A DNA stretch of 64,000 bases from positions 64,001 to 128,000 of the IMG/VR virus record IMGVR_UViG_3300017971_000207; one strand, 5' to 3'. The stretch comes from a virus. Shown here piece by piece: positions 6,918 through 25,913 of this stretch; within the stretch, counting starts at the first letter, position 1; each line of letters starts with the position of its first letter. A model generated the notes under the pieces. The model searched no databases and was not told the DNA's origin. It saw nothing but the letters and a program-made list of their open reading frames with translations. Made by a program: the position numbers and the translations under genes.

Positions 6918-7247
6918 CTACCCCTCCTTGGGCTCCCCACCCGCCCGGTCCTTTGACGTCTCGCGGTCAGCATCACCGGCAGGGAATGCTGCCACGTAGC
7001 GGCGATCAAAGTCGATGGACGCTCGAAGGGGGCGCCGTGCGTGGTCCCGCTCCCGCTTCCTACCCTTCTGCGTCAGCTTGATGTTGTCCGCCGGGCCCTC
7101 GTCCGAGCCGCGCGCCAGATAGCCGTACCGGGTTAGCTGCGCCCTGGCTATCTGGAAAGCATCCTTGAAGGATGTTGCCCCGCGCTCGCGCATTATCGCT
7201 AGGGTCATATGCTTTACCAGGCGCGGGATATCCGCAGGACCAGCCAT
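6918..7247 (-). CDS. Small basic hypothetical protein
   Basis: 109 aa, coupled to the dnaB stop (TAATG overlap). Confidence 0.6.
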   Translation of the reverse strand: MAGPADIPRLVKHMTLAIMRERGATSFKDAFQIARAQLTRYGYLARGSDEGPADNIKLTQKGRKRERDHARRPLRASIDFDRRYVAAFPAGDADRETSKDRAGGEPKEG

Positions 7248-9856
7248 TAGAACGGTACCCCCTCGTCAGGCGCGTCCCCTGAATCCCCACCGTGCGTCGC
7301 CGAGAAGGGGTCCTCGTCGTCATCCCCCCCACCAGGCTGCACCGGACCACCAACACGTGGGAGCTCAGAGAAGTTGCACCGGTCTATGTCCCAATTGACC
7401 TCAAACGCCTCGCCCTCCCCCTCACGCATCTTGAGGGCCTTCATCAGCATCCGGCGATCCTTCTTCATGTCGTCCGTCTGGATAAGGGCATAGGCTAGAT
7501 CAGCGTTCCACGATGACACGTCGGTCAGCGCTATGCGGTCCGCTCTAAAGGTGCTGGCCGTATTGCTTTTCACCTCGCGGTTGAACTGCATGGTTACCAG
7601 GTTCGGGACACTGGTCCGCTTGCAAATCCTCTTGAGCTCATCAAAAGCGTTGGCGGCTCGCTCCGTCCGGTTCTTGCCCTCCGTCTTTAGCAGGTAAGCC
7701 CCATCCATCACCGCCAGGTCAGGCTCATACTCACGGATGGCGTCCTCGTAGGTGTCGACACGGAAGTCAAAGTCACCCCCAATGACCTTCAAACGCTCCG
7801 AGCGCTCCACCTCCTGGACGTACGCAGCAATCCCCGCCCGAACGCGCTTCTCAGTGAAGGCATCCAGGCGCCCAAGACGCAGCTCCCGGTAGCTAACCTT
7901 GAAGTGAAGCGCAGCAAAGCGCATCGCTATCCGCAGCTTGGATATCTCCGTCGAGCCGAACAGCACCTTGTGCCCGTTCTCCCAAGCGTGGTGAGCTATC
8001 AGCGCTGTGCACCAGGTATTGTGCACGATCACGTCGTTGGCAACAAAGCAGCTCGTGGGCTCAACCGTGAAGTCGTATATCTTCTGCTCCCCAACGTCCT
8101 CAACGGCCTCCACCGTGTCCCAAAACACCTCGCTGTCCCAGAGCCAGCTGTACTCCTCGGTGCAGCCAAACTCGTCGCAGTAGACCCGCAAGGCATCGAG
8201 CGATACTGAGTAGAGGTCTCCATGCTTCTTGAACAGCTGCCGAGGCGAGAAAGTGCCTCGACCGAGCCGCTCGCAGATACGCTGCAGCTTGTCACCGTTA
8301 GGGTTGTGGTAGCCCCGCGCCCCAGCCTCACCCTTGATGCGCAACATCAGCTCCTCAGACACTCGGGGGAAGCCTACATTCGCGTTGCGGGGCCGCTTTA
8401 GAGACTCCTCCAGCCGCCTACCCTTCTCCCCCCACAGCTGGACATGCTTCGCGAAAGCTGGCAGGCACTGCGAGTAAACACGGAGCCGCCAGGCATCAAA
8501 CTTCTTGCCGTCGCAGGTAGCCTGCTTGTACCTAACGCTCGACTGCACACCAAAACGCAGCAACAGATGCTGAATCCCTCGGACGAGCTTCTCAGAGGCT
8601 AGGGTGATGCCTGGAGCCCCACTGTCCACGTACCCATCGCACATCCAGAAGACTGCGAGGAAGCGCGCCAACTGCTCCTGCGGGAGGCGGTAGACCTCCT
8701 CGGGAATAACCTTCTCTTTGCTCAACAAACCAGACACCCGAAGACGCCGCAACAATCTGTCCACCGGATTGCTCTGCGCCCCCGCGGCACGTGTAAAGCG
8801 CCAATCCCGCCCACGCGCGCTGGGCTCCAAAGTAATCCCGAAAGCCTCGGCAGCTGTCCGCCCCAACGCAACGATCGAGGGGTCATCCTTCGTAAAAGTC
8901 GGACTACCGTGAGCCGCTAAAGAACCATCAGCCAGCATAATCGCTAAGACGTCAACCTCATGCGTCTGCATACCGACAGGTTCCAAAGGCTCCGGTATCC
9001 AAGAGGGCAAACCTACTGTGCTCCCTGCTACCAATTCGTCCGCACGTTGCCACCCATCAGGCGTCAAAAAGGGGTGCTCGGGCGTGACTGTAATGCTGCG
9101 ACCTGTCCCCAGCTCAAAGCGCAAACACCGCTTGGTCCCTGTATCGTGCTTTGCCGTAATGCGCTGCACATGGACCCCGTCCTCCTTGCTCCAGCTTAGA
9201 ACGTTGACTAGATCCCCTCGCTTGTAAACGTCCTCAACGGTGTGGGGTGCACCAGTAGCCGGGTCGTGTGTAAGTGTTTGATAATACACGCATTTTCCTG
9301 TGCCGGTCTTCGCAGCAAAAAGGATAAGGTCCTCGGGCCAAAAACCGTAGGTCTCCTCATTGATCGTAGGCCAAGGCGTTAGGATGCCACGCTCCCCCGC
9401 TTTCATCCGATCGTAGTGCTCCATCACCTTCGGCCAAAGCTTGGGGATGCTCTCCGCCCGAGAGTGGGAAACCTGGTGCTCTCGGCGGATACCCCGCAGA
9501 AGGCTCTCCAGCGCGTCTAGAGCTTCGTAGGGCCGTGCGTCGTCAAGATGCTTTGCCGTCTCCAACAGGCTGTTGCGTAGGTCTATCTGCATCTTGCGCG
9601 CCCAGACCTCCTTAACGAAGAACTCCGCGGGCTCATCCACATCCGGCAGCGCTAAGCTCAGCTTAGCCTCTACCACCTGACGCGACGGCGGCGAACCATA
9701 GAGCTTCGCATGATCGTTGATAAGCTTGTAGGCCCCTGGGGCGTGCTCACCCATCAGCAGGTCAGGGCGCATAGCCGCCTCTCTAGCAACCTTGAGCCCC
9801 GCCCCGTCGCCCGCGAGAATCGCAGAGATAAGAGCTAAATCGAGATCGAGAGCCAC
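7247..9856 (-). CDS. dnaB: DnaB-like replicative helicase with an intein in the P-loop
   Basis: AAKTGTGK|T Walker A, STE, DLAVMDG, QFNR, KMREG. Confidence 0.92.
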   Translation of the reverse strand: MALDLDLALISAILAGDGAGLKVAREAAMRPDLLMGEHAPGAYKLINDHAKLYGSPPSRQVVEAKLSLALPDVDEPAEFFVKEVWARKMQIDLRNSLLETAKHLDDARPYEALDALESLLRGIRREHQVSHSRAESIPKLWPKVMEHYDRMKAGERGILTPWPTINEETYGFWPEDLILFAAKTGTGKCVYYQTLTHDPATGAPHTVEDVYKRGDLVNVLSWSKEDGVHVQRITAKHDTGTKRCLRFELGTGRSITVTPEHPFLTPDGWQRADELVAGSTVGLPSWIPEPLEPVGMQTHEVDVLAIMLADGSLAAHGSPTFTKDDPSIVALGRTAAEAFGITLEPSARGRDWRFTRAAGAQSNPVDRLLRRLRVSGLLSKEKVIPEEVYRLPQEQLARFLAVFWMCDGYVDSGAPGITLASEKLVRGIQHLLLRFGVQSSVRYKQATCDGKKFDAWRLRVYSQCLPAFAKHVQLWGEKGRRLEESLKRPRNANVGFPRVSEELMLRIKGEAGARGYHNPNGDKLQRICERLGRGTFSPRQLFKKHGDLYSVSLDALRVYCDEFGCTEEYSWLWDSEVFWDTVEAVEDVGEQKIYDFTVEPTSCFVANDVIVHNTWCTALIAHHAWENGHKVLFGSTEISKLRIAMRFAALHFKVSYRELRLGRLDAFTEKRVRAGIAAYVQEVERSERLKVIGGDFDFRVDTYEDAIREYEPDLAVMDGAYLLKTEGKNRTERAANAFDELKRICKRTSVPNLVTMQFNREVKSNTASTFRADRIALTDVSSWNADLAYALIQTDDMKKDRRMLMKALKMREGEGEAFEVNWDIDRCNFSELPRVGGPVQPGGGDDDEDPFSATHGGDSGDAPDEGVPF
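8018..9292 (-). mobile_element. LAGLIDADG intein (425 aa)
   Basis: CVYYQTL...VTPEHPF...LAIMLADG...LAVFWMCDG...IYDFTVEPTSCFVANDVIVHN|T. Confidence 0.93.
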
Positions 9857-9858
9857 AG

Positions 9859-10470
9859 CTACCTCCTCGCTCCCATGACCAGGTCCTTTAGCGCCCGGTC
9901 GCCGGTGTTACATTGGTTGGGCCCCTCCACAAGCAGCGGGACCATGCGGCCCTTGACAGCCTCCGCGAACGTCCCGAAGTCGGCGTCGATGTCCGCAAAG
10001 GGGATGCGCGTGGTAATGATGGTAGGACGCTTCCAGCCGCCCCGCTGCAACACTAAGCGCTCCAGGTCTCGGGCACCAAGCAAACGGTCCGAAGCGTCGG
10101 CGGGGTCAAGGTCGTCAAGCACCAGCAACGGGACCGCTCGCGCCCGGTCCATCATGGTCTGCTCCTCGTCGAACATCAGGCGCTTCCGAATGCTCTCGCG
10201 GAGGTCCGAGACGGATATCCAGAATACGGGCATCCGGTGGGCCCGCACCTCCTTGGCGATTAACGCGGCAATAGCACTCTTGCCCACCCCAGGAGGACCC
10301 ATTAGCAGCAGCCCCGCACAGGCCGATACCATCTGCGGAGCGCGGCTAAGGTAGCGGGCAACCACCTGCTGCACACTCTCGGGGACCTTTTCCAGCGTAA
10401 CCTCCCACAGCTCTGGTGGAAGCTGCATACGCTCCATGTCCTCGTGATCTATCTCTCGCTTGTCCATCAT
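9859..10470 (-). CDS. DnaC/IstB-like AAA+ helicase loader
   Basis: GPPGVGKS, LLVLDDL and PTIITT motifs; lies between the initiator and dnaB. Confidence 0.88.
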   Translation of the reverse strand: MMDKREIDHEDMERMQLPPELWEVTLEKVPESVQQVVARYLSRAPQMVSACAGLLLMGPPGVGKSAIAALIAKEVRAHRMPVFWISVSDLRESIRKRLMFDEEQTMMDRARAVPLLVLDDLDPADASDRLLGARDLERLVLQRGGWKRPTIITTRIPFADIDADFGTFAEAVKGRMVPLLVEGPNQCNTGDRALKDLVMGARR

Positions 10471-14138: not shown

Positions 14139-16064
14139 CTACCTCCGGCGCAGGAACTGGATAAAGCTGGACGAGACCAGCTGGACGAGGTCGGAGCCTA
14201 TGCGCTCAGCTCGAACTCGCCGCCAAAAGCGCTGCGGCCCAAACATATAGGACAGCTGAGACGGCTCTAGGTCAAAGCGCGTAGGGAAACCGGGCCCCAT
14301 CCGAGACCCGAGGAGAATGCCAGTAACGCCGATCCCCTGAGCCCGTGCCTGCTGCACCTCTTTGCGAACAAAGCGCATTAGCTGAGGAGTGCCGAACGTC
14401 TTCCCGTCACGCCGTCGATGGGTAGGGAACCCATCAGTGACTATGAAGATATGCTTGACCTCGGTTCCACAGCGCAGCTCCTTAACGGCCAGCCGTATAG
14501 CAACGTGGAGCGGGGTACCACCCCCGGCCCCCTTGTCCCCCATCGAGAGCACAGCATCCTTGTGGGAATCATAGCGGGTGATGGTTATCTGGCCAGGCTC
14601 CTGAGAGGAGAAGCCCCAAACCAGACTCTCTACGAAGGGGAAGCGCAGCGCTCGGTTGAGGATGTTGTAGGCAGAGCGGCACTGAATCGTTTTGCTGTGA
14701 CCCATAGAGCTGGAGCGGTCTAGAAGAAGGATGGACCGAAAGCCTTGCCCCCTAGCCTCCGAGCGAAAGCAAGGGACCGGCACACCTGTTACGTGGCGCT
14801 CCAGATAGGCGCCAACGTCCACCCTCGTCCCGCTCTCCTCTAGCGCCGAGGCACGTCGCCCCAGCACGCGGTAAAACTGGGCCCGCAGGCGCCGAATGGT
14901 TCGGCGTTCGTCGGGGTACACGTTCACCGAACCTTCGCGATCGTGGTCAATGAAGGTGACCTTCGCCATGGCGTCCTTCTGTAGCCACGCATCGCGACGA
15001 ACAACCTGCTTCATCTCCTGCAGGACCTGTGCAATCAGGTCCTGCATGCGGTCCTCAGACCGCGCTAGCTCCGCGTCAAACACATCACCGTCACCAACCG
15101 GAGCACACAGAGCTTTAGAGGCCAGAGCCTGCGACCGCGGAGATGTCCGAGACCGGACATAGCTCGACTCGCGCATCAGGCCCTCCAGGGCCTCCGGAGC
15201 GTCGCCGCTGTCTGCTAGAACTCTTGATAGGGCCTGCGCCCTCTCACGGCCAGAGACGGCCTGCGGGGCCTCGGGGTGCCACGGCTGCTGCTCCCCACTT
15301 TCCGCGCTGGCGCTCTCGTCCTCCTTACCGTCTGATGATCCCTCCTCATTGTCCCCGTCTCCCCTCTGCGGACAGGAGGGAGGGGGCTCGCCGCGGGTCT
15401 CACGGATTATCTGATTCACCAGCTGCACGACCAGCCACTTGCTCACCATCAAGGTGGCAGTAAAGTCGCGACCACACACCTTTCGGAACGCCTCCAGTAT
15501 GTATGGCTCGAAGCAGTCTAGGTCCCCAGGCGCCACGCCCTCTGGGTCCCCGCTCAGGCAGGTTACGTAGGAGAGCAGGCCCTCATGGGCCTCGGGCAAT
15601 ATCTCCGCGACAGCCTCACGATCGAGGTCTCTGATGATATCTCTGCTCCCGGCGTATAGCAGTCCCCACAGGGAGAGCACCCGGCGTCGCTCCAGCTGCG
15701 CGATGATATGTCCTAGCAGCTGGCGAACATCCTCCAAGGCAATGGGGACTCCCAGCTTTTCTCCTACCTTCTGCACCTTCTCGGTGTAGGTCTCCACGAA
15801 GAGGCGGGCGGCTTGAGGGTCGCTCTTGAAAAGAATATGCGCTAACTGCAGCTCAACCAGCCGGTAAAAGCTGGAGTGGAAGAAGGGCGCTCTTATCTCG
15901 TGGCCGTCCGTCCCCGGCACGTCGGCGTGGCGCAGCCACAGCTTGCGTTTGGTAATACCCGCAAACATGTCCACGGTCTTGTAGGCCACTGAGCGGGTGG
16001 TCTCATATGCTCGGAGAGCCTCCCGACGCTCTGGAGATAATTCGGCGGCAGCGTCCGGGGTCAT
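14139..16064 (-). CDS. vWA-domain protein (CobT/NorD-like MoxR partner)
   Basis: MIDAS DRSSS, GGTPL, VTDG; acidic linker; directly downstream of the MoxR ATPase. Confidence 0.88.
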   Translation of the reverse strand: MTPDAAAELSPERREALRAYETTRSVAYKTVDMFAGITKRKLWLRHADVPGTDGHEIRAPFFHSSFYRLVELQLAHILFKSDPQAARLFVETYTEKVQKVGEKLGVPIALEDVRQLLGHIIAQLERRRVLSLWGLLYAGSRDIIRDLDREAVAEILPEAHEGLLSYVTCLSGDPEGVAPGDLDCFEPYILEAFRKVCGRDFTATLMVSKWLVVQLVNQIIRETRGEPPPSCPQRGDGDNEEGSSDGKEDESASAESGEQQPWHPEAPQAVSGRERAQALSRVLADSGDAPEALEGLMRESSYVRSRTSPRSQALASKALCAPVGDGDVFDAELARSEDRMQDLIAQVLQEMKQVVRRDAWLQKDAMAKVTFIDHDREGSVNVYPDERRTIRRLRAQFYRVLGRRASALEESGTRVDVGAYLERHVTGVPVPCFRSEARGQGFRSILLLDRSSSMGHSKTIQCRSAYNILNRALRFPFVESLVWGFSSQEPGQITITRYDSHKDAVLSMGDKGAGGGTPLHVAIRLAVKELRCGTEVKHIFIVTDGFPTHRRRDGKTFGTPQLMRFVRKEVQQARAQGIGVTGILLGSRMGPGFPTRFDLEPSQLSYMFGPQRFWRRVRAERIGSDLVQLVSSSFIQFLRRR

Positions 16065-18109
16065 CTCTTCTTCCCGTTGAGGTCTACCTTGAATATCGAG
16101 GTGATGCGCTCCCGGACCGTGGCTTTGTCTGTCCCCTCGAACTTACCGACGACGATGCGCAGCGCGCGGGTTAGGTCCAGAGCTGCAATATCCTCCAGAA
16201 GCTGCACGACATCACGAGGGCTGAGGGCATAGTCCAAGGAAGCCTGGCGAGTCTCGTGCGCGAGCGTCATAACCTGCTTGACCACCTCTTTTCGAACGCC
16301 CCCGTTGAGCACAGCATCCAAGATCTTCTTCTCGCTGGTGGGATTGGGGTAGTCGACCGAGATAACCCTAAAACGAGACTTCAGATCCTCATTGAGCGCG
16401 TACACGCCGCCGTATACCGCCGTGTTCATTGTCCCGGTAACCCACAGCTCCTTACCGGGCTGCAGCTTAAACACCTTCTGCGCCTCGGGCACCTCCACCC
16501 GGCAACGCCAATCTGCTACCGCGTTAAGGATCTTCTGGCTCTGGGGTGAAAGCGAGTTATGCGTACCAAGCCCGTTGGCAAAGTATGTATGAGTCCCCGT
16601 GAGACCTATCTCTCGTAAGGGTGTTGGGGTCCTGTTGACTACCACTCTTTGTACAGTTACCCATCGAGGAACGTCCTCACCGCCCGACGTATTAGGTCTG
16701 GGCTTTTCAGATCCTCTTCCGATAGTCTCAACACTGTATAGCCCATGCTGGTGTAGGCTGCCGTCTCTGCCTCGCGCTGCTCTTTCGGGTGCCAGTAAGC
16801 CCCATCTACCAGCAGTACCTTCTTTCCCCTGGCAATGAAGTCGGGATTGAGGTGCCTCCCATCGGGGGTCGTCAACCATCTGCTGCCGTCGCCGACATAG
16901 TGAACCGGAAGACCTTCTAGGATGCTCATAGCCTTCCGCTCCAGTGCTGTGGGAAGCTCCGCATTCCACCCCGCATGTACAAACTGTATCTTGGCCTCGG
17001 GGTGCGCCTTCAGGTACGCCTTCCGCTTCGCCGACATATTCTGCCTGTGTGCGGGGTCGGACCATATTCTCTGAGCGCGTTCCGAGGCCAAGGCGCGACC
17101 TTTGGGACTCCGCCAAAACGCTGCGGTGGCTTGGCCACCTCGTGCTGCAGCCTCGCGGAACTCGGGGGACCGACAAACTGCCAAACGTTTGGCCCGCCTC
17201 TCCTCGTCGGCCCACTCTTTCTTCATCTGTCGCCTTTTGGTAGCAGCCATCTTTGCCCGCGTGGTTGGGTCCTCGTGCGGGCGCAAATTTCTCAGGAAGG
17301 CTGACATGCCCTCGCGGTACTCTTTGTCCTTCCACCTTTCGCGCATAGCCCTGGAGCGTTTTGCGCGAGCCTCCGGCGTCCTCGCCTTTGCTTGGACGTC
17401 CGGGCGACGTCCCGGATTGTCTCCGTGCGCCATACGTTCGTGAGCTCTTAAGGCCCGCAGGTCCCTCTTCACGCAGCCGCAAGTTTTGCAGGTGTAAGAT
17501 TCGGTCGCCTTCGCGGATGTCTTCGGCATAGGACCAACCTCGTGCGGTCCAAAAAAGGTGGTTACCGCTAGCAGTTATCCTACGCTCACCACAATCTAGT
17601 GTAAAGGAGGTGTTAGCCCATTCATCTCGGACCTCTACCACCGTCTCGATGCCTTGTTGACCAGAGGGTCCGAAGCTCACCACAGCGTCTCCCACCTGGA
17701 CGCGTTCTATAGGCACTTGGAGACCCGAAGGCAGCATTACGTTGGAGGATGGGTGTATGCAATTGATCTCCTCTAGGCAGAGGATACAGCGGCCAACCTC
17801 ATTGGCCACCTCGAAGGCGTTGGTTATGGGCCCTAGAACAAAAGGGGTCGAGCCCCCTCGGATGATGTGCATCCCCAGCAGATGAGAGCGCCGCACATCC
17901 TCTGAGCAGTCAAAGGTGATGATCGGGCTCCGTACCTTGTTAGCGTAGTGCTGGATGGAGAGTGTTTTCCCTACCCCCTTCGGACCACACACAATTGCGG
18001 GTGCCCGAAAGGCTAGCCCATCATACAGAGGGAGCAGGTCCAGGGCGTCGATGTAGGTAACCTGCTTCGGAGCGAAGCTGTCTGCGGGCAAACTTAGAAT
18101 ATCGCTCAT
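16061..18109 (-). CDS. MoxR/CbbQ-type AAA+ ATPase with intein
   Basis: GPKGVGKT, Walker B ILCLEEIN|S, GTMN, LNEDLKSRF, LSPRD. Confidence 0.9.
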   Translation of the reverse strand: MSDILSLPADSFAPKQVTYIDALDLLPLYDGLAFRAPAIVCGPKGVGKTLSIQHYANKVRSPIITFDCSEDVRRSHLLGMHIIRGGSTPFVLGPITNAFEVANEVGRCILCLEEINCIHPSSNVMLPSGLQVPIERVQVGDAVVSFGPSGQQGIETVVEVRDEWANTSFTLDCGERRITASGNHLFWTARGWSYAEDIREGDRILHLQNLRLREEGPAGLKSSRTYGARRQSGTSPGRPSKGEDAGGSRKTLQGYARKVEGQRVPRGHVSLPEKFAPARGPNHAGKDGCYQKATDEERVGRRGEAGQTFGSLSVPRVPRGCSTRWPSHRSVLAESQRSRLGLGTRSENMVRPRTQAEYVGEAEGVPEGAPRGQDTVCTCGVECGASHSTGAEGYEHPRRSSGSLCRRRQQMVDDPRWEAPQSRLHCQGKEGTAGRWGLLAPERAARGRDGSLHQHGLYSVETIGRGSEKPRPNTSGGEDVPRWVTVQRVVVNRTPTPLREIGLTGTHTYFANGLGTHNSLSPQSQKILNAVADWRCRVEVPEAQKVFKLQPGKELWVTGTMNTAVYGGVYALNEDLKSRFRVISVDYPNPTSEKKILDAVLNGGVRKEVVKQVMTLAHETRQASLDYALSPRDVVQLLEDIAALDLTRALRIVVGKFEGTDKATVRERITSIFKVDLNGKKR
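16556..17761 (-). mobile_element. Intein (402 aa) with an out-of-frame nested endonuclease gene
   Basis: CIHPSSNV...ASGNH (block B)...IGLTGTHTYFANGLGTHN|S. The middle has no recognisable in-frame domain. Confidence 0.88.
16657..17529 (-). CDS. Nested putative homing endonuclease: C2H2 finger, NUMOD3-like helices, Vsr/DUF559-like nuclease
   Basis: CKTC-x12-HERMAH; basic repeats such as TPEARAKRSRAMRERWKD; C-terminal PTALE...PDFI...VDGAYWH...MGYTVLRLSEEDL; GAGGT SD upstream of the ATG. Confidence 0.82.
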   Translation of the reverse strand: MPKTSAKATESYTCKTCGCVKRDLRALRAHERMAHGDNPGRRPDVQAKARTPEARAKRSRAMRERWKDKEYREGMSAFLRNLRPHEDPTTRAKMAATKRRQMKKEWADEERRAKRLAVCRSPEFREAAARGGQATAAFWRSPKGRALASERAQRIWSDPAHRQNMSAKRKAYLKAHPEAKIQFVHAGWNAELPTALERKAMSILEGLPVHYVGDGSRWLTTPDGRHLNPDFIARGKKVLLVDGAYWHPKEQREAETAAYTSMGYTVLRLSEEDLKSPDLIRRAVRTFLDG

Positions 18110-20437: not shown

Positions 20438-20529
20438 GTGAGCATCTTACCCTATGGAGAGGGGATTGTCTATCCCACCTCGCCTGGAGCCAGTAACTAG
20501 AGTATGCTCAGAAGGCTGGAGGTCACACT

Positions 20530-20910
20530 ATGGATACTCTTGTCGAACTCTGGGAAAAGCACAGCTTCTGGTTGATCCCTGTAGGCTGGGCGCTTCTCTC
20601 GGGCGCGCTCAACCTCGCGTTGCGCAAGCGCACAGCGGAGGAGTGGGTCGAATATGCAGAGCAGCACCCGCGCCGGGCAGCTATCATCCGACTCATTCGC
20701 GCTCTGGGGTTTGATCCCGCTAAAGCTATCAACGCTGTTCAGCACCTGGTAAATGGGAAAGCTGTAGCGACCCGACGAATGCTGCCGGAGCCTGCTGCTA
20801 AAGCTCTAGAGGCGGCAGAGATCCTAGCGACCGCTAAGGACGAGGACAAGGCCAACGAGGCCAAGAAGGACGAGAAGGAGAAGCCATGCGAAAAGCCGCA
20901 ACCACCCTAA
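20530..20910 (+). CDS. Single-TM protein, holin-like candidate
   Basis: Hydrophobic WLIPVGWALLSGALNLAL segment and a highly charged C-terminus; GGAGG RBS. Confidence 0.5.
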   Translation: MDTLVELWEKHSFWLIPVGWALLSGALNLALRKRTAEEWVEYAEQHPRRAAIIRLIRALGFDPAKAINAVQHLVNGKAVATRRMLPEPAAKALEAAEILATAKDEDKANEAKKDEKEKPCEKPQPP

Positions 20911-21257
20911 TCCTAGCCCTGGCAGCCCTGGTGCTAACCGGCTGTCCCCAGTTTAAGCCGTGGGCCCGAACAGCCCTCGAAGCAGCCCGACACGCCTGCG
21001 CTGCCTACGCGGAGCAAACGGGCCTGTCCTTCAAGGACGTGTGCGACACCGAGGAGAAGCTACGTCCGTTTATCGATTCGATCCTAGCAGCTCAAGCAGC
21101 AGCCGCGGCAAAGGGGGCGGCCGGAGCCTGCAAGTGCCCAAAGTGTGAGGAGGCCCCCAAGCCCGCTGCCCCCGCACCGAAGCCGCCTCCCCCCACGCCC
21201 TCCGCAAAGCCGGAGGCCAAACCCATCCCCAAGCCTGAGCCAGCACCAGGAGGCTGA
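20886..21257 (+). CDS. Lipoprotein with a Pro-rich tail
   Basis: Signal peptide with lipobox LTGC. Confidence 0.75.
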   Translation: MRKAATTLILALAALVLTGCPQFKPWARTALEAARHACAAYAEQTGLSFKDVCDTEEKLRPFIDSILAAQAAAAAKGAAGACKCPKCEEAPKPAAPAPKPPPPTPSAKPEAKPIPKPEPAPGG

Positions 21258-21258
21258 G

Positions 21259-24200
21259 ATGACGGAGAAAGGCACAGGCTACATCCCATCGCCAGAGGAC
21301 GAGCGGGACTACCCGCTGATAGGCCCAGGCGAGAACGCCCTCTTCGGGGCGCTGAACACAACGGTCCCCACCGAGCATCTAGCAATGCTACCGTTGATCG
21401 ACTTCATCCGTGATCAAGGCGGCACCAACTCGTGCTTTCCTGCGGGCACTCGCGTGCTCCTGGAAGGCTTTACAGAGCGACCTATCGAACAGATTGCTCC
21501 AGGAAACCGTGTGCGGACGCACACAGGCCGAAGCGGTGCCGTCACAAAGGTGTCTGAGAGACCCTACGAGGGGCTGCTGTATTCGATCAAAGTAGGAGGC
21601 TGGATATACCCCCTAGAGGCTACTCCCGAGCACCCCGTAGCCGTCATCGCCAACGTGTCCGCCAGAGCAAAGCACGGAGACTTCGAGCCTGGTGAGCTAA
21701 CGTGGCGCCGGTTTGACGCGATACGTCCAGGAGATCGTGTAGTCATGCCTGCAGACACCCGAGAGTTCCCCGAGGACTATCGGTCTGCGTGGCACGTGCT
21801 GCGCGTAGCGGACTATCTGGAAGGGGAGTACTGGGAGGAAGATGGCGCTGTTCGAGCGGCCATGGGAAGACGGGGGAGTGAGATACCTGCGGAGCTGGGG
21901 CTCACCCCCGATATCGGCAGGCTTCTCGGGCTGTTCCTAGCAGAGGGCAGCTTTCTCAAACCCAGCGGCACTAAACAGGGTGTGGCGTTCACCTTTGCGC
22001 GGCACGAAGCGCTCCTCCACACCTTCGTCTTGGAGGCCATGAGGACACACTTCGACCTGGAGGGCCAGAAGGAGGAGACGGAGCAGAAGCCCAACGTCAC
22101 AACGTTGCTATTCTACAGCTCAACTGTAGCGCAGCTGTTCTACGCTCTGTGCGGAGAAGGGGCGCTACAGAAGCGCGTGCCCGACGTGTTTTTTGAGACA
22201 GGGCGCGACGTGAAGCTCGCACTCATCCGAGGGTGGTTTCAAGGAGATGGGTCTCAAGACCCCGTTCGTCTCCGCAGAAAGAAGGACGGCACTGTGCGCA
22301 AAGCTGCGGCCGTTCAAGGAGTCACAAGCTCTGAGGAGCTCCACCGTGGGCTATACCGCTTAGCCTCTCTCTGTAACATCAAGCTCAGTACGCAGCAGAG
22401 AAAGGTAGCGGAGCATCAAAACGCTGCCGGCCGCGAGCTGAACCTTTACGGGGACAACATCCTAAAGGTGTTCCCCGATGCAGCACCGCGCCTGGAAGCC
22501 GCTGGGATAAAGCTATCGGGACGGACCCGCTACCGAAAGCACGCCTTGGGATATCTGTGCCGCGTAGAGGAGGTTTCTATGCGTGAGGCCCCCGCAGACA
22601 CTAAGGTCTACAACTTGGAAGTCGAGGGGGATCACTCGTACGTTGCCGAGGGCATCGCCGTCCACAACTGCGTCTGGCAATCCATCCAGCAGCAGCACTA
22701 CATCGCACAGGGGGTACACGGGGTGCAGCAACGTCTACCCCTGAGCGTGATGTTCGGCTACTACCACACGCGCCTTCGCGGGGGCACGCAGAGGTTTGAC
22801 AATGGCTGCTTCCCCAGGCTGGCCTGGCAGGTGGCGGAGAAGATCGGATTCTGTATCGAGGACCTGTGGCCCTTCAAGGAGCCCGAGATAAACCGACCGC
22901 CGAGTCTAGATGCCACCTCCGGGGCCATAGACCAGCGGTGGGTGCACGGCTACTACCACATCCTCGGACGCCCACGAGAGGAGGAGGTCCGACAGGCCCT
23001 CTCAAACAACCACCCTGTGGTATTCGGGACCGTCGTCGACAACGATTTCAAGCGGTACAAGGGCTCTAACCTTAGCACCGAGCCTATGAAGCCTCCGACG
23101 GGCCACTCCGGACGCCATATGATGTGCGCAGTTGCGTACGATCAAGACGGTCTGTGGGTGATCAACTCGTGGGGCTGTTACGACGATAAGACGGAGATTC
23201 TAACCGCCGCTGGGTGGAAGTCTTTTGCTGATGTCGTGGTGGGTGAGCCCGTCGCAACGCTTAATAGCCACGGGGAGCTGGAGTACCAGAATACGACTGA
23301 CGTTCAACGCTACATCTACGACGGAGAGTTGTGGTCTTACCAGTCCCAAGGCGTAGACCTTGTTGTGACGCCAAACCACAACATGCTCATAGGACGCCGT
23401 TGTCGCGAAGGCGGTAAGCGCGTCCCCAAGTGGGAGCGCGTTCCGGCTGATCGCATCAACACCAAACACTTCTTGATGAAGAAAACGGCTGCCTGGTCAG
23501 GCGAAGAGCCTCCTTACATTGAGGTCGGTCCCCACAGGATACCAACGGAGCTTTGGGTCGAGTTCCTCGGCTACTTCTTGTCCGAAGGTCATGCCCGAGA
23601 GAACGTGGTCCAACGGCCGGAGCGTGTGGCGCTTAACGGTACGACAGGTCGCGAGAAGCGGTACAGCGCGTGCAGCGAAACTCAGTACCTGGTGGGTATC
23701 CATCAAACCAAGTCTGAAGGTGTCTTCAAGATGGGCGCCTGTCTACGTCGCATGCCTGCCGCCTTCACCCGCATAACAGGGGGTTGGCAGGCAACATCTA
23801 GCCCACTGTGCGAGCATCTTCTCCCGCTCGGAAAAGCGCATCAGAAGTACATTCCTCCCTACGTCAAAAGGCTCTCTCCTCGGCTTCTACGAGTGTTCCT
23901 GAAGGCCGCTTGTCTCGGCGACGGCTCCCCTGTAGGCCGCAACGGCAGCGTCTACTACACCTCGTCCAAGCGGCTTGCTGACGATATACAGGAGGTTGCA
24001 CTAAAGGCCGGGATGTGTGCAGATATACGCGAGGATGATCGCCGCGGTCGTACTAATGCGCGGGGGACCACTCGCTATGTGAACTACCAGGTGGCAATCA
24101 AACCCGTGAGGGGAGAAACCAAACCCAAAGGAGGCTTCACGCCAACAAAGATCCCCTACAAAGGTTTCGTGCGCTGCGTCACAGTACCGAACGGTCTGGT

Positions 24201-24369
24201 CTATGTTCGACGCAATGGTAAGGCGGTCTGGTCGGGCAACTCCGACTGGGGCTGCCCGGACCCATCAGGGTTCTATCGATCGGGGTTCTTTCATATGTCC
24301 TGGGAATGGGTAAACTGGTCAAGTGCCACTGATTGGTGGGCCGTCCAATACCCAAAGATGTTCGTTTAG
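21259..24369 (+). CDS. Papain-like (C1) cysteine peptidase with two inteins (~269 aa after splicing)
   Basis: IRDQGGTNS|C (oxyanion Q and catalytic C), GRHMMCAVAY (His), INSWG|SDWG..GFF. AGGAGG RBS before ATG 21259. Confidence 0.88.
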   Translation: MTEKGTGYIPSPEDERDYPLIGPGENALFGALNTTVPTEHLAMLPLIDFIRDQGGTNSCFPAGTRVLLEGFTERPIEQIAPGNRVRTHTGRSGAVTKVSERPYEGLLYSIKVGGWIYPLEATPEHPVAVIANVSARAKHGDFEPGELTWRRFDAIRPGDRVVMPADTREFPEDYRSAWHVLRVADYLEGEYWEEDGAVRAAMGRRGSEIPAELGLTPDIGRLLGLFLAEGSFLKPSGTKQGVAFTFARHEALLHTFVLEAMRTHFDLEGQKEETEQKPNVTTLLFYSSTVAQLFYALCGEGALQKRVPDVFFETGRDVKLALIRGWFQGDGSQDPVRLRRKKDGTVRKAAAVQGVTSSEELHRGLYRLASLCNIKLSTQQRKVAEHQNAAGRELNLYGDNILKVFPDAAPRLEAAGIKLSGRTRYRKHALGYLCRVEEVSMREAPADTKVYNLEVEGDHSYVAEGIAVHNCVWQSIQQQHYIAQGVHGVQQRLPLSVMFGYYHTRLRGGTQRFDNGCFPRLAWQVAEKIGFCIEDLWPFKEPEINRPPSLDATSGAIDQRWVHGYYHILGRPREEEVRQALSNNHPVVFGTVVDNDFKRYKGSNLSTEPMKPPTGHSGRHMMCAVAYDQDGLWVINSWGCYDDKTEILTAAGWKSFADVVVGEPVATLNSHGELEYQNTTDVQRYIYDGELWSYQSQGVDLVVTPNHNMLIGRRCREGGKRVPKWERVPADRINTKHFLMKKTAAWSGEEPPYIEVGPHRIPTELWVEFLGYFLSEGHARENVVQRPERVALNGTTGREKRYSACSETQYLVGIHQTKSEGVFKMGACLRRMPAAFTRITGGWQATSSPLCEHLLPLGKAHQKYIPPYVKRLSPRLLRVFLKAACLGDGSPVGRNGSVYYTSSKRLADDIQEVALKAGMCADIREDDRRGRTNARGTTRYVNYQVAIKPVRGETKPKGGFTPTKIPYKGFVRCVTVPNGLVYVRRNGKAVWSGNSDWGCPDPSGFYRSGFFHMSWEWVNWSSATDWWAVQYPKMFV
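21433..22668 (+). mobile_element. LAGLIDADG intein (412 aa) immediately before the catalytic Cys
   Basis: CFPAGT...ATPEHP...LGLFLAEG...IRGWFQGDG...VYNLEVEGDHSYVAEGIAVHN|C. Confidence 0.93.
23176..24240 (+). mobile_element. LAGLIDADG intein (355 aa, ends GN)
   Basis: CYDDKTEIL...VTPNH...LGYFLSEG...CLGDG...CVTVPNGLVYVRRNGKAVWSGN|S. Confidence 0.92.
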
Positions 24370-24381
24370 GAGACCAACACA

Positions 24382-24738
24382 ATGAATCGTGAGCTAAACC
24401 GCTTGTTAGAGAGCGTACGTGCAGAGCTGGCAGAGGGCCTCCCCAAAGGGAAGTACCTGGGCCTACGAGACGCAAAAAGCATCGACATGAACCGTGTCCG
24501 GGTTGATCTAGAGACCACCTCTGGGGACAATCTAGGGGGCAACATCGAAACCCTCTTGAGAGGTGAGGACGATGTAAGGTGGCTTACGAGGCCGCCGCGA
24601 CGAGGGGAGGGCACCGCGAGCTTCACCATCTTCGTCCGGGACCCGGACGAGTTCAAGTACCTGTGGAACACGTTGGAGCGTGCAGAGATCTACGACGACA
24701 CTATCCTAAACTTCTACGTCAGCGTCACGGACATCTAG
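24382..24738 (+). CDS. Hypothetical protein with the shared N-terminal leader
   Basis: MNRELNRLLESVRAELAEG; AGGAG RBS. Confidence 0.7.
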   Translation: MNRELNRLLESVRAELAEGLPKGKYLGLRDAKSIDMNRVRVDLETTSGDNLGGNIETLLRGEDDVRWLTRPPRRGEGTASFTIFVRDPDEFKYLWNTLERAEIYDDTILNFYVSVTDI

Positions 24739-24747
24739 GATATCGAC

Positions 24748-25089
24748 ATGCACCACCTTCCCTTCTTACTCATGCTGGCCCTCATGGTCTGCATGCTCCC
24801 CGCCTGCCCGGACCCTGTCATCCCTGGCCCTCAATGGGACGGGGGGTCTGTTGAGCCCGACCCCGTTCTACCCCCTGGTGTTGATGCCAACGAGGCTGCC
24901 TGCAAGCGCCTAGAGGAGCTGCAGTGCAAGTCAAAGGATGGGCGCAACCTCTGGGAGCCCACACCCGGCGGCGTCTCCTGCGTCGACGTGTTCCGCAACG
25001 CAGAGAAGAATGGGGTCAACCTACACCCTGCGTGTTTGGCTAAAATAGAACGCTGTGAGGATAGGCATCGGTGTACCGACAAGGGCTAG
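24748..25089 (+). CDS. Cys-rich lipoprotein
   Basis: Signal peptide ending LPAC; six further Cys. Confidence 0.7.
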   Translation: MHHLPFLLMLALMVCMLPACPDPVIPGPQWDGGSVEPDPVLPPGVDANEAACKRLEELQCKSKDGRNLWEPTPGGVSCVDVFRNAEKNGVNLHPACLAKIERCEDRHRCTDKG

Positions 25090-25592
25090 TCCAGATGCGC
25101 CCATAAACGGCGTGTGACAAGTGCATGCACCAGGCTCTCACTGACATGGTACTTCTCCGCCAAGCTTCTCAGGGACACCTTTCGAGGGACGTATCTCCGC
25201 CTGATGTCTCGCACCTGTTCAGGAGTAAGCTTGGCGGACCCGTTGGCTTCGCCTGGGTGTGCAACGTGTCGTCCTTTGGACATCATGTCTCTCATGTTAT
25301 CCGTGTGGGTCCCAACCCACAGGTGCTCTGGGTTGACGCAGGGTGGGTTGTCACACTTGTGCAGAACACAGAGCCCCTCGGGTATAGGGCCGCGGGTAAG
25401 CTCCCAAGATACTCGGTGGGCATAGGTAGATATGCTGCTGAGTTCCTGTCGGCTCCCCTGCCTGAAGAACCCATACTGGGTACGGGAGTGTCGAGGACCC
25501 GTCCAAAGCCAACAATCTCCACTACAGTCCACATGTTTCCAGAATCGCTCGGTCTCGACCAGGCCGAAGGTAGTCTGCTGTCTTGCTGTCAT
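25086..25592 (-). CDS. Free-standing HNH homing endonuclease with a C-terminal HTH
   Basis: RFWKHV..CWLWTG..YAHRVSWE..VLHKCDNPPCVNPEHLWVGTHTDNMRD; GEANGSAKLT. Confidence 0.92.
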   Translation of the reverse strand: MTARQQTTFGLVETERFWKHVDCSGDCWLWTGPRHSRTQYGFFRQGSRQELSSISTYAHRVSWELTRGPIPEGLCVLHKCDNPPCVNPEHLWVGTHTDNMRDMMSKGRHVAHPGEANGSAKLTPEQVRDIRRRYVPRKVSLRSLAEKYHVSESLVHALVTRRLWAHLD

Positions 25593-25819
25593 GATGCAGG
25601 AGGCTCCGCAGGCGTACGAAGACCTCGGACCGCGACTAGCTGGGCTTCCAGAGATTGCTCTGCCTTCGGCAGCTCCTTGGCCAAGAACTCCCCCAACGCT
25701 TCCTTGATCAGCTTGTTTAGCGTAGTCTCTCTGTAGTCGGCTAGGAACTTGAGACGCTTGTGGGTAAAAGGATACAACCTAACAGTGATTTTGACAGGAT
25801 CTTCGTCTTTTGACTCCAT
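25589..25819 (-). CDS. Ribbon-helix-helix protein
   Basis: VKITVRLYPFTHKRLKFLADYRETTLNKLIKEAL; ATGA-coupled to the HNH gene. Confidence 0.7.
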   Translation of the reverse strand: MESKDEDPVKITVRLYPFTHKRLKFLADYRETTLNKLIKEALGEFLAKELPKAEQSLEAQLVAVRGLRTPAEPPAS

Positions 25820-25865
25820 AATAGGAGTATGGCGGCATACTCAAGAGTTGCCGTCAAACCAACCG

Positions 25866-25913
25866 AAGATCGAAAAGTGTGAGGACCGTCACAGCTGCAC
25901 CGACAAAGGATAG
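25866..25913 (+). pseudogene. Displaced duplicate of the lipoprotein 3' end
   Basis: Encodes KIEKCEDRHSCTDKG*, versus KIERCEDRHRCTDKG* at 25042-25089. Confidence 0.85.

Follow-up and report, generated by a model that had tools for sequence, protein, structure and literature searches.

Which enzyme is encoded by a viral gene whose catalytic motifs are interrupted by two long inserts, and what would this enzyme do next to genes for a membrane protein and lipoproteins? The question is raised by a plus-strand block of five open reading frames (ORFs) in the IMG/VR virus record IMGVR_UViG_3300017971_000207. The stretch analyzed, referred to here as the window, comprises bases 64001-128000 of this linear record of 145,433 nt; positions are those of the window unless given as genome positions, which count along the whole record. 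An original prediction, made from the letters alone, had described the block as a lysis-like cassette with the order transmembrane (TM) protein, Pro-rich lipoprotein, C1 peptidase, small protein and Cys-rich lipoprotein, and we recovered this order with the same coordinates (Table 1). The comparisons reported below identify the 3.1-kb ORF at its center as a C1A peptidase gene with two independently acquired LAGLIDADG inteins, located at the two most conserved catalytic motifs. Based on sequence, we regard the identification of both the inteins and the peptidase as secure.

Inteins in the peptidase gene

Joining the three exteins of the precursor gives a protein of 269 amino acids. A search with the middle extein alone retrieved nine intein-free homologues of 266-276 amino acids, which are 53-75% identical to it over this segment. 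In the alignment, none of the nine orthologues has a gap across either junction (...TNS/CVWQ... and ...NSWG/xDWG..., with the slash at the insertion point). Of all results, this seamless alignment argues most strongly for inteins, and it fixes their boundaries exactly. In the numbering of the intein-free orthologue P0003, intein 1 is located between Ser57 and the catalytic Cys58, and intein 2 follows Gly226, three residues past the catalytic Asn223. Both sites had been correctly predicted, intein 1 with the catalytic Cys of the protease as its +1 residue and intein 2 immediately after the NSWG motif.

Intein 1 starts with Cys1, has TPEH in block B and retains the Glu and Asp of its two LAGLIDADG motifs; its C-terminal HN is followed by the catalytic Cys of the peptidase in the +1 position. 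Intein 2 contains Cys1, TPNH (block B), two LAGLIDADG motifs with the acidic residue kept, and a C-terminal GN followed by Ser at +1. The profile LAGLIDADG_3 (PF14528; Pfam cut-off 22.5) was matched by intein 1 with 28.4 bits and by intein 2 with 30.2 bits. Intein 1 also matched the NCBIfam model TIGR01443 (intein_Cterm) with 39 bits (cut-off 15.6), and reached 29.5 bits with Pfam Intein_splicing, under the cut-off of 35.8. Intein 2 aligned end to end (E 4e-8) with an intein that this genome carries in its DNA polymerase gene, the two having block A, block B (TxxH), LAGLIDADG and the C-terminal block in common. The residue at the +1 position of intein 2 varies across the peptidase family, which accounts for the tolerance of Ser there. 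When the two inteins of the peptidase gene were compared with each other, no significant similarity was detected, and they are thus best explained by independent invasions.

The distribution of the two elements differs among orthologues. P0011, encoded on a 126-kb viral contig (locus L011, genome G001), has intein 1 at the same site but is without intein 2, with Lys in place of the +1 Ser of this genome. The two copies of intein 1 are 57% identical in amino acid sequence. The proportion of nonsynonymous differences (pN) was 0.30 and that of synonymous differences (pS), which are saturated between the two copies, 0.78; the corresponding values for the endonuclease part were 0.32 and 0.75. These values point to purifying selection on intein 1, the endonuclease part included, which fits an element still under selection. 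Intein 2 was absent from all orthologues found. Beyond P0011, no further intein-bearing member of the family was seen among the best 150 of 8363 matches in a library of 1.8 billion proteins. P0014, P0019 and P0021 (761-1181 amino acids) were considered as candidates and rejected, being intein-free proteins with two or three C1 domains and zinc-ribbon-rich linkers between them.

According to the mechanism of class 1 inteins, the unspliced precursor would be inactive, and two splicing reactions would join the three exteins. The Cys destined for catalysis would first lend its thiol to intein 1 as the +1 nucleophile. From the geometry of the insertions and this standard mechanism, we infer that formation of the enzyme needs both splicing events. 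If one or both inserts no longer spliced, the gene would be a dead remnant. Intein 2 has no penultimate His and gave no match to a Hint-domain profile in Pfam or NCBIfam, which favors this possibility and counts against an intact pair of inteins. However, a penultimate His is frequent in inteins, not obligatory. Moreover, the 1036-codon frame is fully open, and Cys1, TxxH, the terminal Asn and a Cys or Ser at +1 are all present. The exteins are 65% identical to those of the G001 orthologue with a ratio of nonsynonymous to synonymous substitution (dN/dS) of about 0.16, and intein 1 appears to be under purifying selection, as described above. Splicing without the penultimate His is also on record (Chen, Benner and Perler 2000, as cited in PMC5050341). 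We consider a dead remnant extremely unlikely.

The most plausible view of the inteins is that of selfish homing elements, which have settled on invariant DNA. They could also act as a built-in fuse, in that activity of the protease would have to await two splicing steps, slow or dependent on conditions, which would help to time lysis. Until then the catalytic thiol would be tied up as the +1 nucleophile, and a redox-sensitive pair could form between Cys1 and Cys+1. Such an additional role seems very unlikely to us.

Identity of the host enzyme

A profile of the intein-free orthologues was searched against the sequences of the PDB. The best match, over the full length, was xylellain from Xylella fastidiosa (3OIS; E 2e-18), followed by cathepsins H, S and B and plant papain relatives. 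Note that the identity to xylellain is only about 23%. PF00112 (Peptidase_C1; cut-off 20.7) was matched with 23.5-28.8 bits by the orthologues P0003, P0004, P0008 and P0010. The middle extein of the window, searched alone, remained under this cut-off and gave only a weak match to Peptidase_C39_2, covering the His-Asn region. In an alignment of 134 family members, C58 and H207 are invariant, and Q52, N223, S224 and W225 are conserved in at least 90% of the sequences. The catalytic Gln, Cys, His and Asn are all present in the exteins of the window.

AlphaFold modeled the intein-free orthologue P0003 with a predicted local distance difference test (pLDDT) score of 96.4 using the 134-sequence alignment; an earlier run with a 9-sequence alignment (pLDDT 39) was discarded. 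In a Foldseek search with this model, 3OIS was again the best match (E 8e-18, TM-score 0.77-0.78), followed by procathepsins B, K and S. Through this orthologue, the peptidase is predicted to have the papain fold with its L and R domains. Neither a signal peptide nor a TM segment was found in the peptidase. By sequence, conserved catalytic residues and the fold predicted for this orthologue, the host protein is a short xylellain-type C1A cysteine peptidase of 269 amino acids, and the assignment to the papain family made in the original prediction is borne out by the 3OIS match, the PF00112 matches of the four orthologues and the conserved Gln-Cys-His-Asn set.

Short xylellain-type C1A genes are widespread, as the 8363 library matches illustrate, and their horizontal acquisition from bacteria by Myoviridae and Siphoviridae has been described (PMC10380794). 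In one library protein, P0137 (795 amino acids), a C1 domain at the N-terminus precedes a long region that by eye resembles a tail-fibre or lectin-type domain.

The combination of a papain-family enzyme with inteins had been singled out as unusual, and three surveys of intein hosts, in which no C1 peptidase appears, agree with this. The protease exteins named in these surveys are ClpP and archaeal LonB, and no C1/papain extein is listed there. A literature search, mostly confined to journals available without subscription, returned no report of a C1-family extein or of a C1A peptidase in a phage lysis cassette.

Conservation of the gene module

The genes around the five-ORF block are all encoded on the minus strand, and the block, which adjoins a uracil-DNA glycosylase (UDG) gene, therefore constitutes a separate, divergently oriented unit. 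Its features are listed in Table 1. The start of the peptidase precursor was assigned to the ATG and not to the in-frame GTG upstream (21145); the orthologues begin at the equivalent Met. The first 25 nt of the lipoprotein 1 gene lie within the TM gene, an overlap such as an o-spanin gene would show.

Table 1. Features of the peptidase locus (positions in the window).
Feature	Position	Strand	Description
TATGCT motif	20503-20508	+	possible promoter element; ~25 nt 5' of the TM gene start; found at five related loci
TM protein, 126 aa	20530-20910	+	ORF; acidic N-tail, one TM helix, basic cluster, small helical domain, variable D/E/K-rich tail
Lipoprotein 1, 123 aa	20886-21257	+	ORF; signal peptide, lipobox LTGC, helical domain with two conserved Cys, variable Pro-rich tail
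Peptidase precursor gene, 1036 aa + stop	21259-24369	+	ORF; ATG at 21259
N-extein, aa 1-58	21259-21432	+	from the GYIPSP..D.RD start to DQGGTNS; holds the oxyanion-hole Gln
Intein 1, aa 59-470, 412 aa	21433-22668	+	CFPAG...AVHN, then Cys
Middle extein, aa 471-639, 169 aa	22669-23175	+	catalytic Cys (CVWQS), catalytic His (GRHMMC), to the Asn motif NSWG
Intein 2, aa 640-994, 355 aa	23176-24240	+	CYDDK...WSGN, then Ser
C-extein, aa 995-1036, 42 aa + stop	24241-24369	+	SDWG...WWAV; predicted last strands of the papain R-domain
118-aa gene	24382-24738	+	ORF; leader MNRELNRLLE...AE
Lipoprotein 2, 113 aa	24748-25089	+	ORF; lipobox LPAC, Pro-rich tether, small domain with several conserved Cys

Conservation of this neighbourhood, a point that had been raised for checking, was observed for four of the five genes, which recur as a module in six other lineages of phages. 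At L002/L012, L003/L013, L004 and L011, the TM gene is followed by those for lipoprotein 1, the peptidase and lipoprotein 2. At these loci, stops and starts within the module overlap or abut, and the UDG gene always adjoins on the opposite strand. The peptidase-lipoprotein 2 pair, again with overlapping or abutting stop and start, was present in 7 of 7 lineages examined, down to a peptidase identity of 35-40%. These arrangements show a conserved unit, translationally coupled as judged from its gene junctions, that comprises a single-pass membrane protein, lipoprotein 1, the signal-less peptidase and the Cys-rich lipoprotein 2. A different setting was seen in Burkholderia phage FLC9, where the peptidase homologue stands alone among hypothetical genes, a context that gave no hint of its role.

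The small 118-aa protein, which had been counted as a member of the cassette, does not belong to the module: in all relatives its gene is absent from this position and lipoprotein 2 directly follows the peptidase. Since its MNRELNRLLE... leader also recurs on several other genes of this genome, we interpret the gene as a local insertion. Proteins with an MNR(E/A)(L/I)N...LE leader ending in Glu form a multi-copy family of small proteins, encoded at 24382-24738 and at genome positions 12786, 13152, 113209, 132951 and 133530. They may be targeted to the capsid and processed there, as a T4-type prohead protease (Peptidase_S77) is present.

Homologues of the TM protein occupy the same position in L002, L003, L004, L011, L017 and L018; a homologue search returned two unnamed matches. 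All homologues have an acidic N-tail, a basic cluster (RKRT, RKKT or similar) right after the helix and a variable tail rich in D, E and K. By the positive-inside rule, the acidic N-tail and the basic cluster suggest an N-out/C-in orientation, holin-like and not i-spanin-like, as judged by eye. A reading of the TM protein and lipoprotein 1 as an i-spanin/o-spanin pair was tentatively set aside on the basis of this charge topology and the low-complexity tail.

In lipoprotein 1, the lipobox Cys and two further Cys are invariant in an alignment of six homologues. A sub-threshold match of this protein to the Pro-rich rod of TonB reflected composition only. Lipoprotein 2 has five invariant Cys columns, the lipobox Cys and four others, in an alignment of seven homologues, and had no family match in Pfam, PHROG or NCBIfam. 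An atlas search with lipoprotein 2 gave only weak leads to lipoproteins of Myxococcota. Its profile, searched against reference bacterial genomes, yielded a single match of 35 residues in a Sandaracinaceae metagenome-assembled genome, which was rejected in view of the lack of a clean ORF. The lipobox is kept in both lipoproteins in every relative that has the respective gene, in agreement with the proposal that these proteins fit a diderm host.

Search for cell-wall enzymes in this and related phages

In three of the relatives, a protein similar to enzymes of the SLT family (transglycosylase-like) is encoded in or beside the module. At L017 the gene order is TM protein, lipoprotein 1, a 205-aa SLT-like protein with an N-terminal signal-like segment, peptidase and lipoprotein 2. 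At L018 a 248-aa SLT-like protein with a clear signal peptide is encoded between the TM gene and the peptidase. At L011 a 465-aa SLT-like gene (7151-8548, minus strand) follows lipoprotein 2 immediately, in the opposite orientation. The peptidases of L017 and L018 are 35-40% identical to the one in the window. The three SLT-like proteins are homologous to each other and have a conserved Glu-Ser motif in common. Two of the three gave weak matches to SLT Pfam profiles, sub-threshold or marginal, and the best match of the L018 protein in an atlas search was an SLT cluster (score 0.95). A profile of these proteins gave nothing significant against the PDB sequences. A distant SLT-like member was also found in G002, 10 kb from the module. 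The 465-aa protein of L011 consists of two lysozyme/SLT-like halves. A few genes further on (9337-9996, minus strand), the same locus encodes a 219-aa protein matching FGE-sulfatase (E 8e-10).

The presence of an SLT-like enzyme in or beside the module of three relatives ties the module to the cell wall and suggests an accessory part for the protease. These SLT-like genes would be better endolysin candidates than the peptidase. The cassette itself yielded no muralytic enzyme from any known endolysin family, and SLT-like genes in or beside the module are confined to L017, L018 and L011.

The original prediction had noted the lack of a classical endolysin in the window. We searched the contig of this phage (G000) and three related viral contigs (G001-G003) for Phage_lysozyme, Amidase_2, Peptidase_M15_4, GH19, M23, NlpC/P60, GH108 and Lysozyme_like, and detected none of them; for GH19 and GH108 these negatives are weak, as the control genomes likewise gave no match. 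A search of the same four contigs for the SLT family gave only a marginal match in G001, and a Pfam scan of 127 ORFs of this contig revealed no endolysin family. Note that all four contigs are incomplete (42-80%), with 64% for this one as estimated by CheckV. Thus, the earlier statement holds for the window and extends to the contig, as tested with nine families and the 127-ORF scan, but applies only to the 64% of the genome that this contig represents.

Function of the module

Taken as a whole, an account in which two inteins interrupt a C1A peptidase that forms part of a coupled module with a role at the envelope is in our judgement probable. In its more specific form, which we put forward tentatively, the module would act on the host envelope at lysis, with the TM protein as a holin-like gate and the peptidase as a protein-degrading accessory. 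The gate would release the signal-less peptidase, which would then cut, for example, envelope or wall-anchoring proteins and would not be a murein-cleaving endolysin. Murein cleavage would be performed by exported SLT-like enzymes such as those of the relatives; the counterpart in this phage may have been lost or may lie in the missing third of the genome. An accessory protease is likelier than a murein hydrolase because C1A enzymes as a family cut proteins and a separate wall enzyme is retained next to the peptidase in relatives.

A number of observations weigh against an action on the envelope at lysis. The peptidase has no export signal, and an envelope role therefore needs release of the holin type, yet the TM protein had no match in Pfam, PHROG or NCBIfam and none to a holin family. 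Neither lipoprotein matched a spanin family or has a C-terminal u-spanin TM segment. An SLT-like member was not detectable in this genome, and since all four contigs are incomplete, a conventional lysis cassette may exist elsewhere. C1A enzymes are proteinases, and we know of no C1A enzyme acting as a phage lysis protein; the literature search described above likewise returned nothing relevant on C1A peptidases linked to phage lysis. The window contains no T4 late promoter (TATAAATA). The TATGCT motif upstream of the module is conserved in five related loci, but its genome-wide frequency is at chance level, and it is thus only a lead for a promoter. A search for enriched 7-mers in upstream regions recovered only a TTGACA-like word, and a consensus scan of the region for promoters and terminators gave signals at background level. 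Of the lysis or envelope module originally proposed, the conserved, coupled gene set and the link to an SLT-like enzyme in or beside the module of three relatives are upheld, while the holin and spanin assignments lack family matches and the charge pattern speaks against an i-spanin.

The peptidase itself could be the endolysin, released by the TM protein as a holin and cutting the peptide stems or cross-links of peptidoglycan. This contig contains no known endolysin family, the three related contigs yielded only the marginal SLT match, and the close relatives L002, L003 and L004 have the module without an SLT-like gene inside; the weak Peptidase_C39_2 match over the His-Asn region would also be compatible with such an activity. 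However, both sequence and fold place the enzyme firmly in C1A with xylellain and the cathepsins, which degrade proteins, and papain-fold phage lysins belong to other families such as CHAP (PMC10318531). An exported SLT-like enzyme accompanies the peptidase in three lineages, with another 10 kb away in G002, and the failure to detect an endolysin concerns incomplete contigs throughout. We therefore regard the endolysin role that had been envisaged for the peptidase as unlikely, with the SLT-like genes of the relatives being the better candidates. A purely cytoplasmic function appears similarly improbable. In this case the peptidase would act on host or phage proteins in take-over, counter-defence or processing, and its neighbours would be unrelated genes that merely share the operon. 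The absence of a signal peptide and TM segment, the solitary homologue in phage FLC9 and the wide distribution of short xylellain-type genes would all be accommodated. But the peptidase-lipoprotein 2 pair is kept in seven lineages down to 35-40% peptidase identity, and such tight coupling over this distance argues for a shared function. The processing role of a prohead protease was rejected for the peptidase, as it is already filled by the Peptidase_S77 gene in the structural module.

The module might instead be a set for envelope remodeling or superinfection exclusion, comparable to Imm and Sp of T4 or Llp of T5, that blocks receptors or incoming phage enzymes; in a variant of this idea, the lipoproteins would inhibit the enzymes encoded next to them or act as their partners. 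Such a set would be in keeping with the two exported lipoproteins and with a membrane protein that lacks a spanin or holin family match. The position of the module among genes for replication and nucleotide metabolism, beside UDG and not with the structural genes, would also suit it, as would the arrangement in L017, where each enzyme gene adjoins a lipoprotein gene. On the other hand, it is not obvious what a protease without a signal peptide would do in exclusion, coupling to an exported SLT-like muralytic enzyme fits breaching of the wall better, and no similarity to Imm, Sp, Llp or Cor was found in any library searched. Exclusion or remodeling, including the variant, is in our view rather unlikely, and action on the envelope at lysis, with the peptidase as an accessory, remains the reading that we favor.

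Genome context

The Pfam scan of the 127 ORFs detected gp23 capsid, gp20 portal, Peptidase_S77 prohead protease, gp19 tube, sheath and a T4 baseplate protein, together with family A DNA polymerase, RecA, DnaB, primase, ribonucleotide reductase (RNR), ThyX-type functions and others. The predicted gene content is that of a distant T4-like myovirus, the capsid protein of which is at most 36% identical to that of any GenBank phage. The available leads to the host are weak atlas matches to Myxococcota, obtained with the L018 SLT-like protein and lipoprotein 2. Inteins are present in at least seven genes of this genome. One of them interrupts an AAA_5 ATPase gene (16061-18109, minus strand), and its middle translates as low-complexity sequence.

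Three further features of the record may be mentioned. Two antisense genes, one for an HNH endonuclease (25086-25592) and a small one (25589-25819), are located 3' of lipoprotein 2, in the region 25042-25913. Beyond this pair, the last ~15 codons of lipoprotein 2 recur as an orphan near-copy (...KIEKCEDRHSCTDKG, against ...KIERCEDRHRCTDKG in lipoprotein 2). By its arrangement, this looks like the insertion of a free-standing homing endonuclease that brought along a recoded 3' end. Outside the window, a frame of more than 1663 amino acids (L006; genome 2-4990, minus strand) runs off the start of the contig. It probably encodes a tape-measure-like or other large virion protein, and the contig thus appears to have been cut inside the structural region. 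In the last quarter of the contig, the Pfam scan matched IS605 OrfB/Cas12f1-like TNB and resolvase. These matches likely originate from the two terminal ORFs (L010; genome 143464-145297, minus strand), which would form an IS200/IS605-type element.

Comparison with known systems

A papain-family peptidase joins the short list of intein host proteins, and the locus is a clear natural example of a host enzyme whose catalytic nucleophile would also act as a splice nucleophile. Inteins are well known to recruit residues that serve the host protein as their +1 nucleophile, as with the Ser/Thr of P-loops. Here, two unrelated inteins would both have to be excised before the enzyme can form. The gene may be of use in studies of how inteins choose their sites and as a natural template for splicing-gated proteases. 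The block of membrane protein, lipoprotein, C1A peptidase and lipoprotein, with a transglycosylase-like enzyme added in some relatives, points to a possible protease component of phage envelope breaching that has not been described.

The inserts resemble the class 1 LAGLIDADG inteins of phage and archaeal genes, exemplified by PI-SceI/VMA1 and those of phage terminase, DnaB, RNR and polymerase, in being placed in frame at highly conserved active-site motifs. They share with these Cys1, TxxH, the terminal Asn, a Cys or Ser at +1, the nested two-motif LAGLIDADG endonuclease and polymorphism for presence or absence. They differ in that the host protein is a papain-family peptidase and that intein 2 is without the penultimate His. 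Xylellain and the spliced peptidase are both ~260-270 amino acids long, have no signal peptide and keep the Gln-Cys-His-Asn set. Unlike xylellain, the gene described here is phage-encoded, carries two inteins and is part of an operon with a membrane protein and two lipoproteins.

Papain-fold lysins (CHAP/C51, NlpC/P60/C40, PeiW/PeiP) likewise have a papain-like core with Cys and His and are used by phages on the cell wall. However, these are separate families; NLPC_P60 was undetected in the four contigs, and the top fold matches of the P0003 model are all C1A proteinases. A classification of papain-like enzymes from 2023 also assigns phage lysins to CHAP and related families (PMC10318531).

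The holin-endolysin-spanin cassettes of lambda (S-R-Rz/Rz1) and T4 (t, e, pseT.3/pseT.2) consist, like the module, of small, tightly packed, overlapping genes. Both include a protein that crosses the membrane once and has a charged tail, a hydrolase without a signal peptide and lipoproteins of the outer-membrane type. The overlap of the Pro-rich lipoprotein gene with the upstream membrane-protein gene is a further parallel, as is the transglycosylase-like enzyme in the block of relatives. In contrast to these cassettes, the hydrolase is a C1A proteinase and not a member of a muralytic family, and there is no match to a holin or spanin family. The TM protein, N-out/C-in by its charges, would have the orientation opposite to that of an i-spanin, and the lipoproteins are without the TM segment of a u-spanin.

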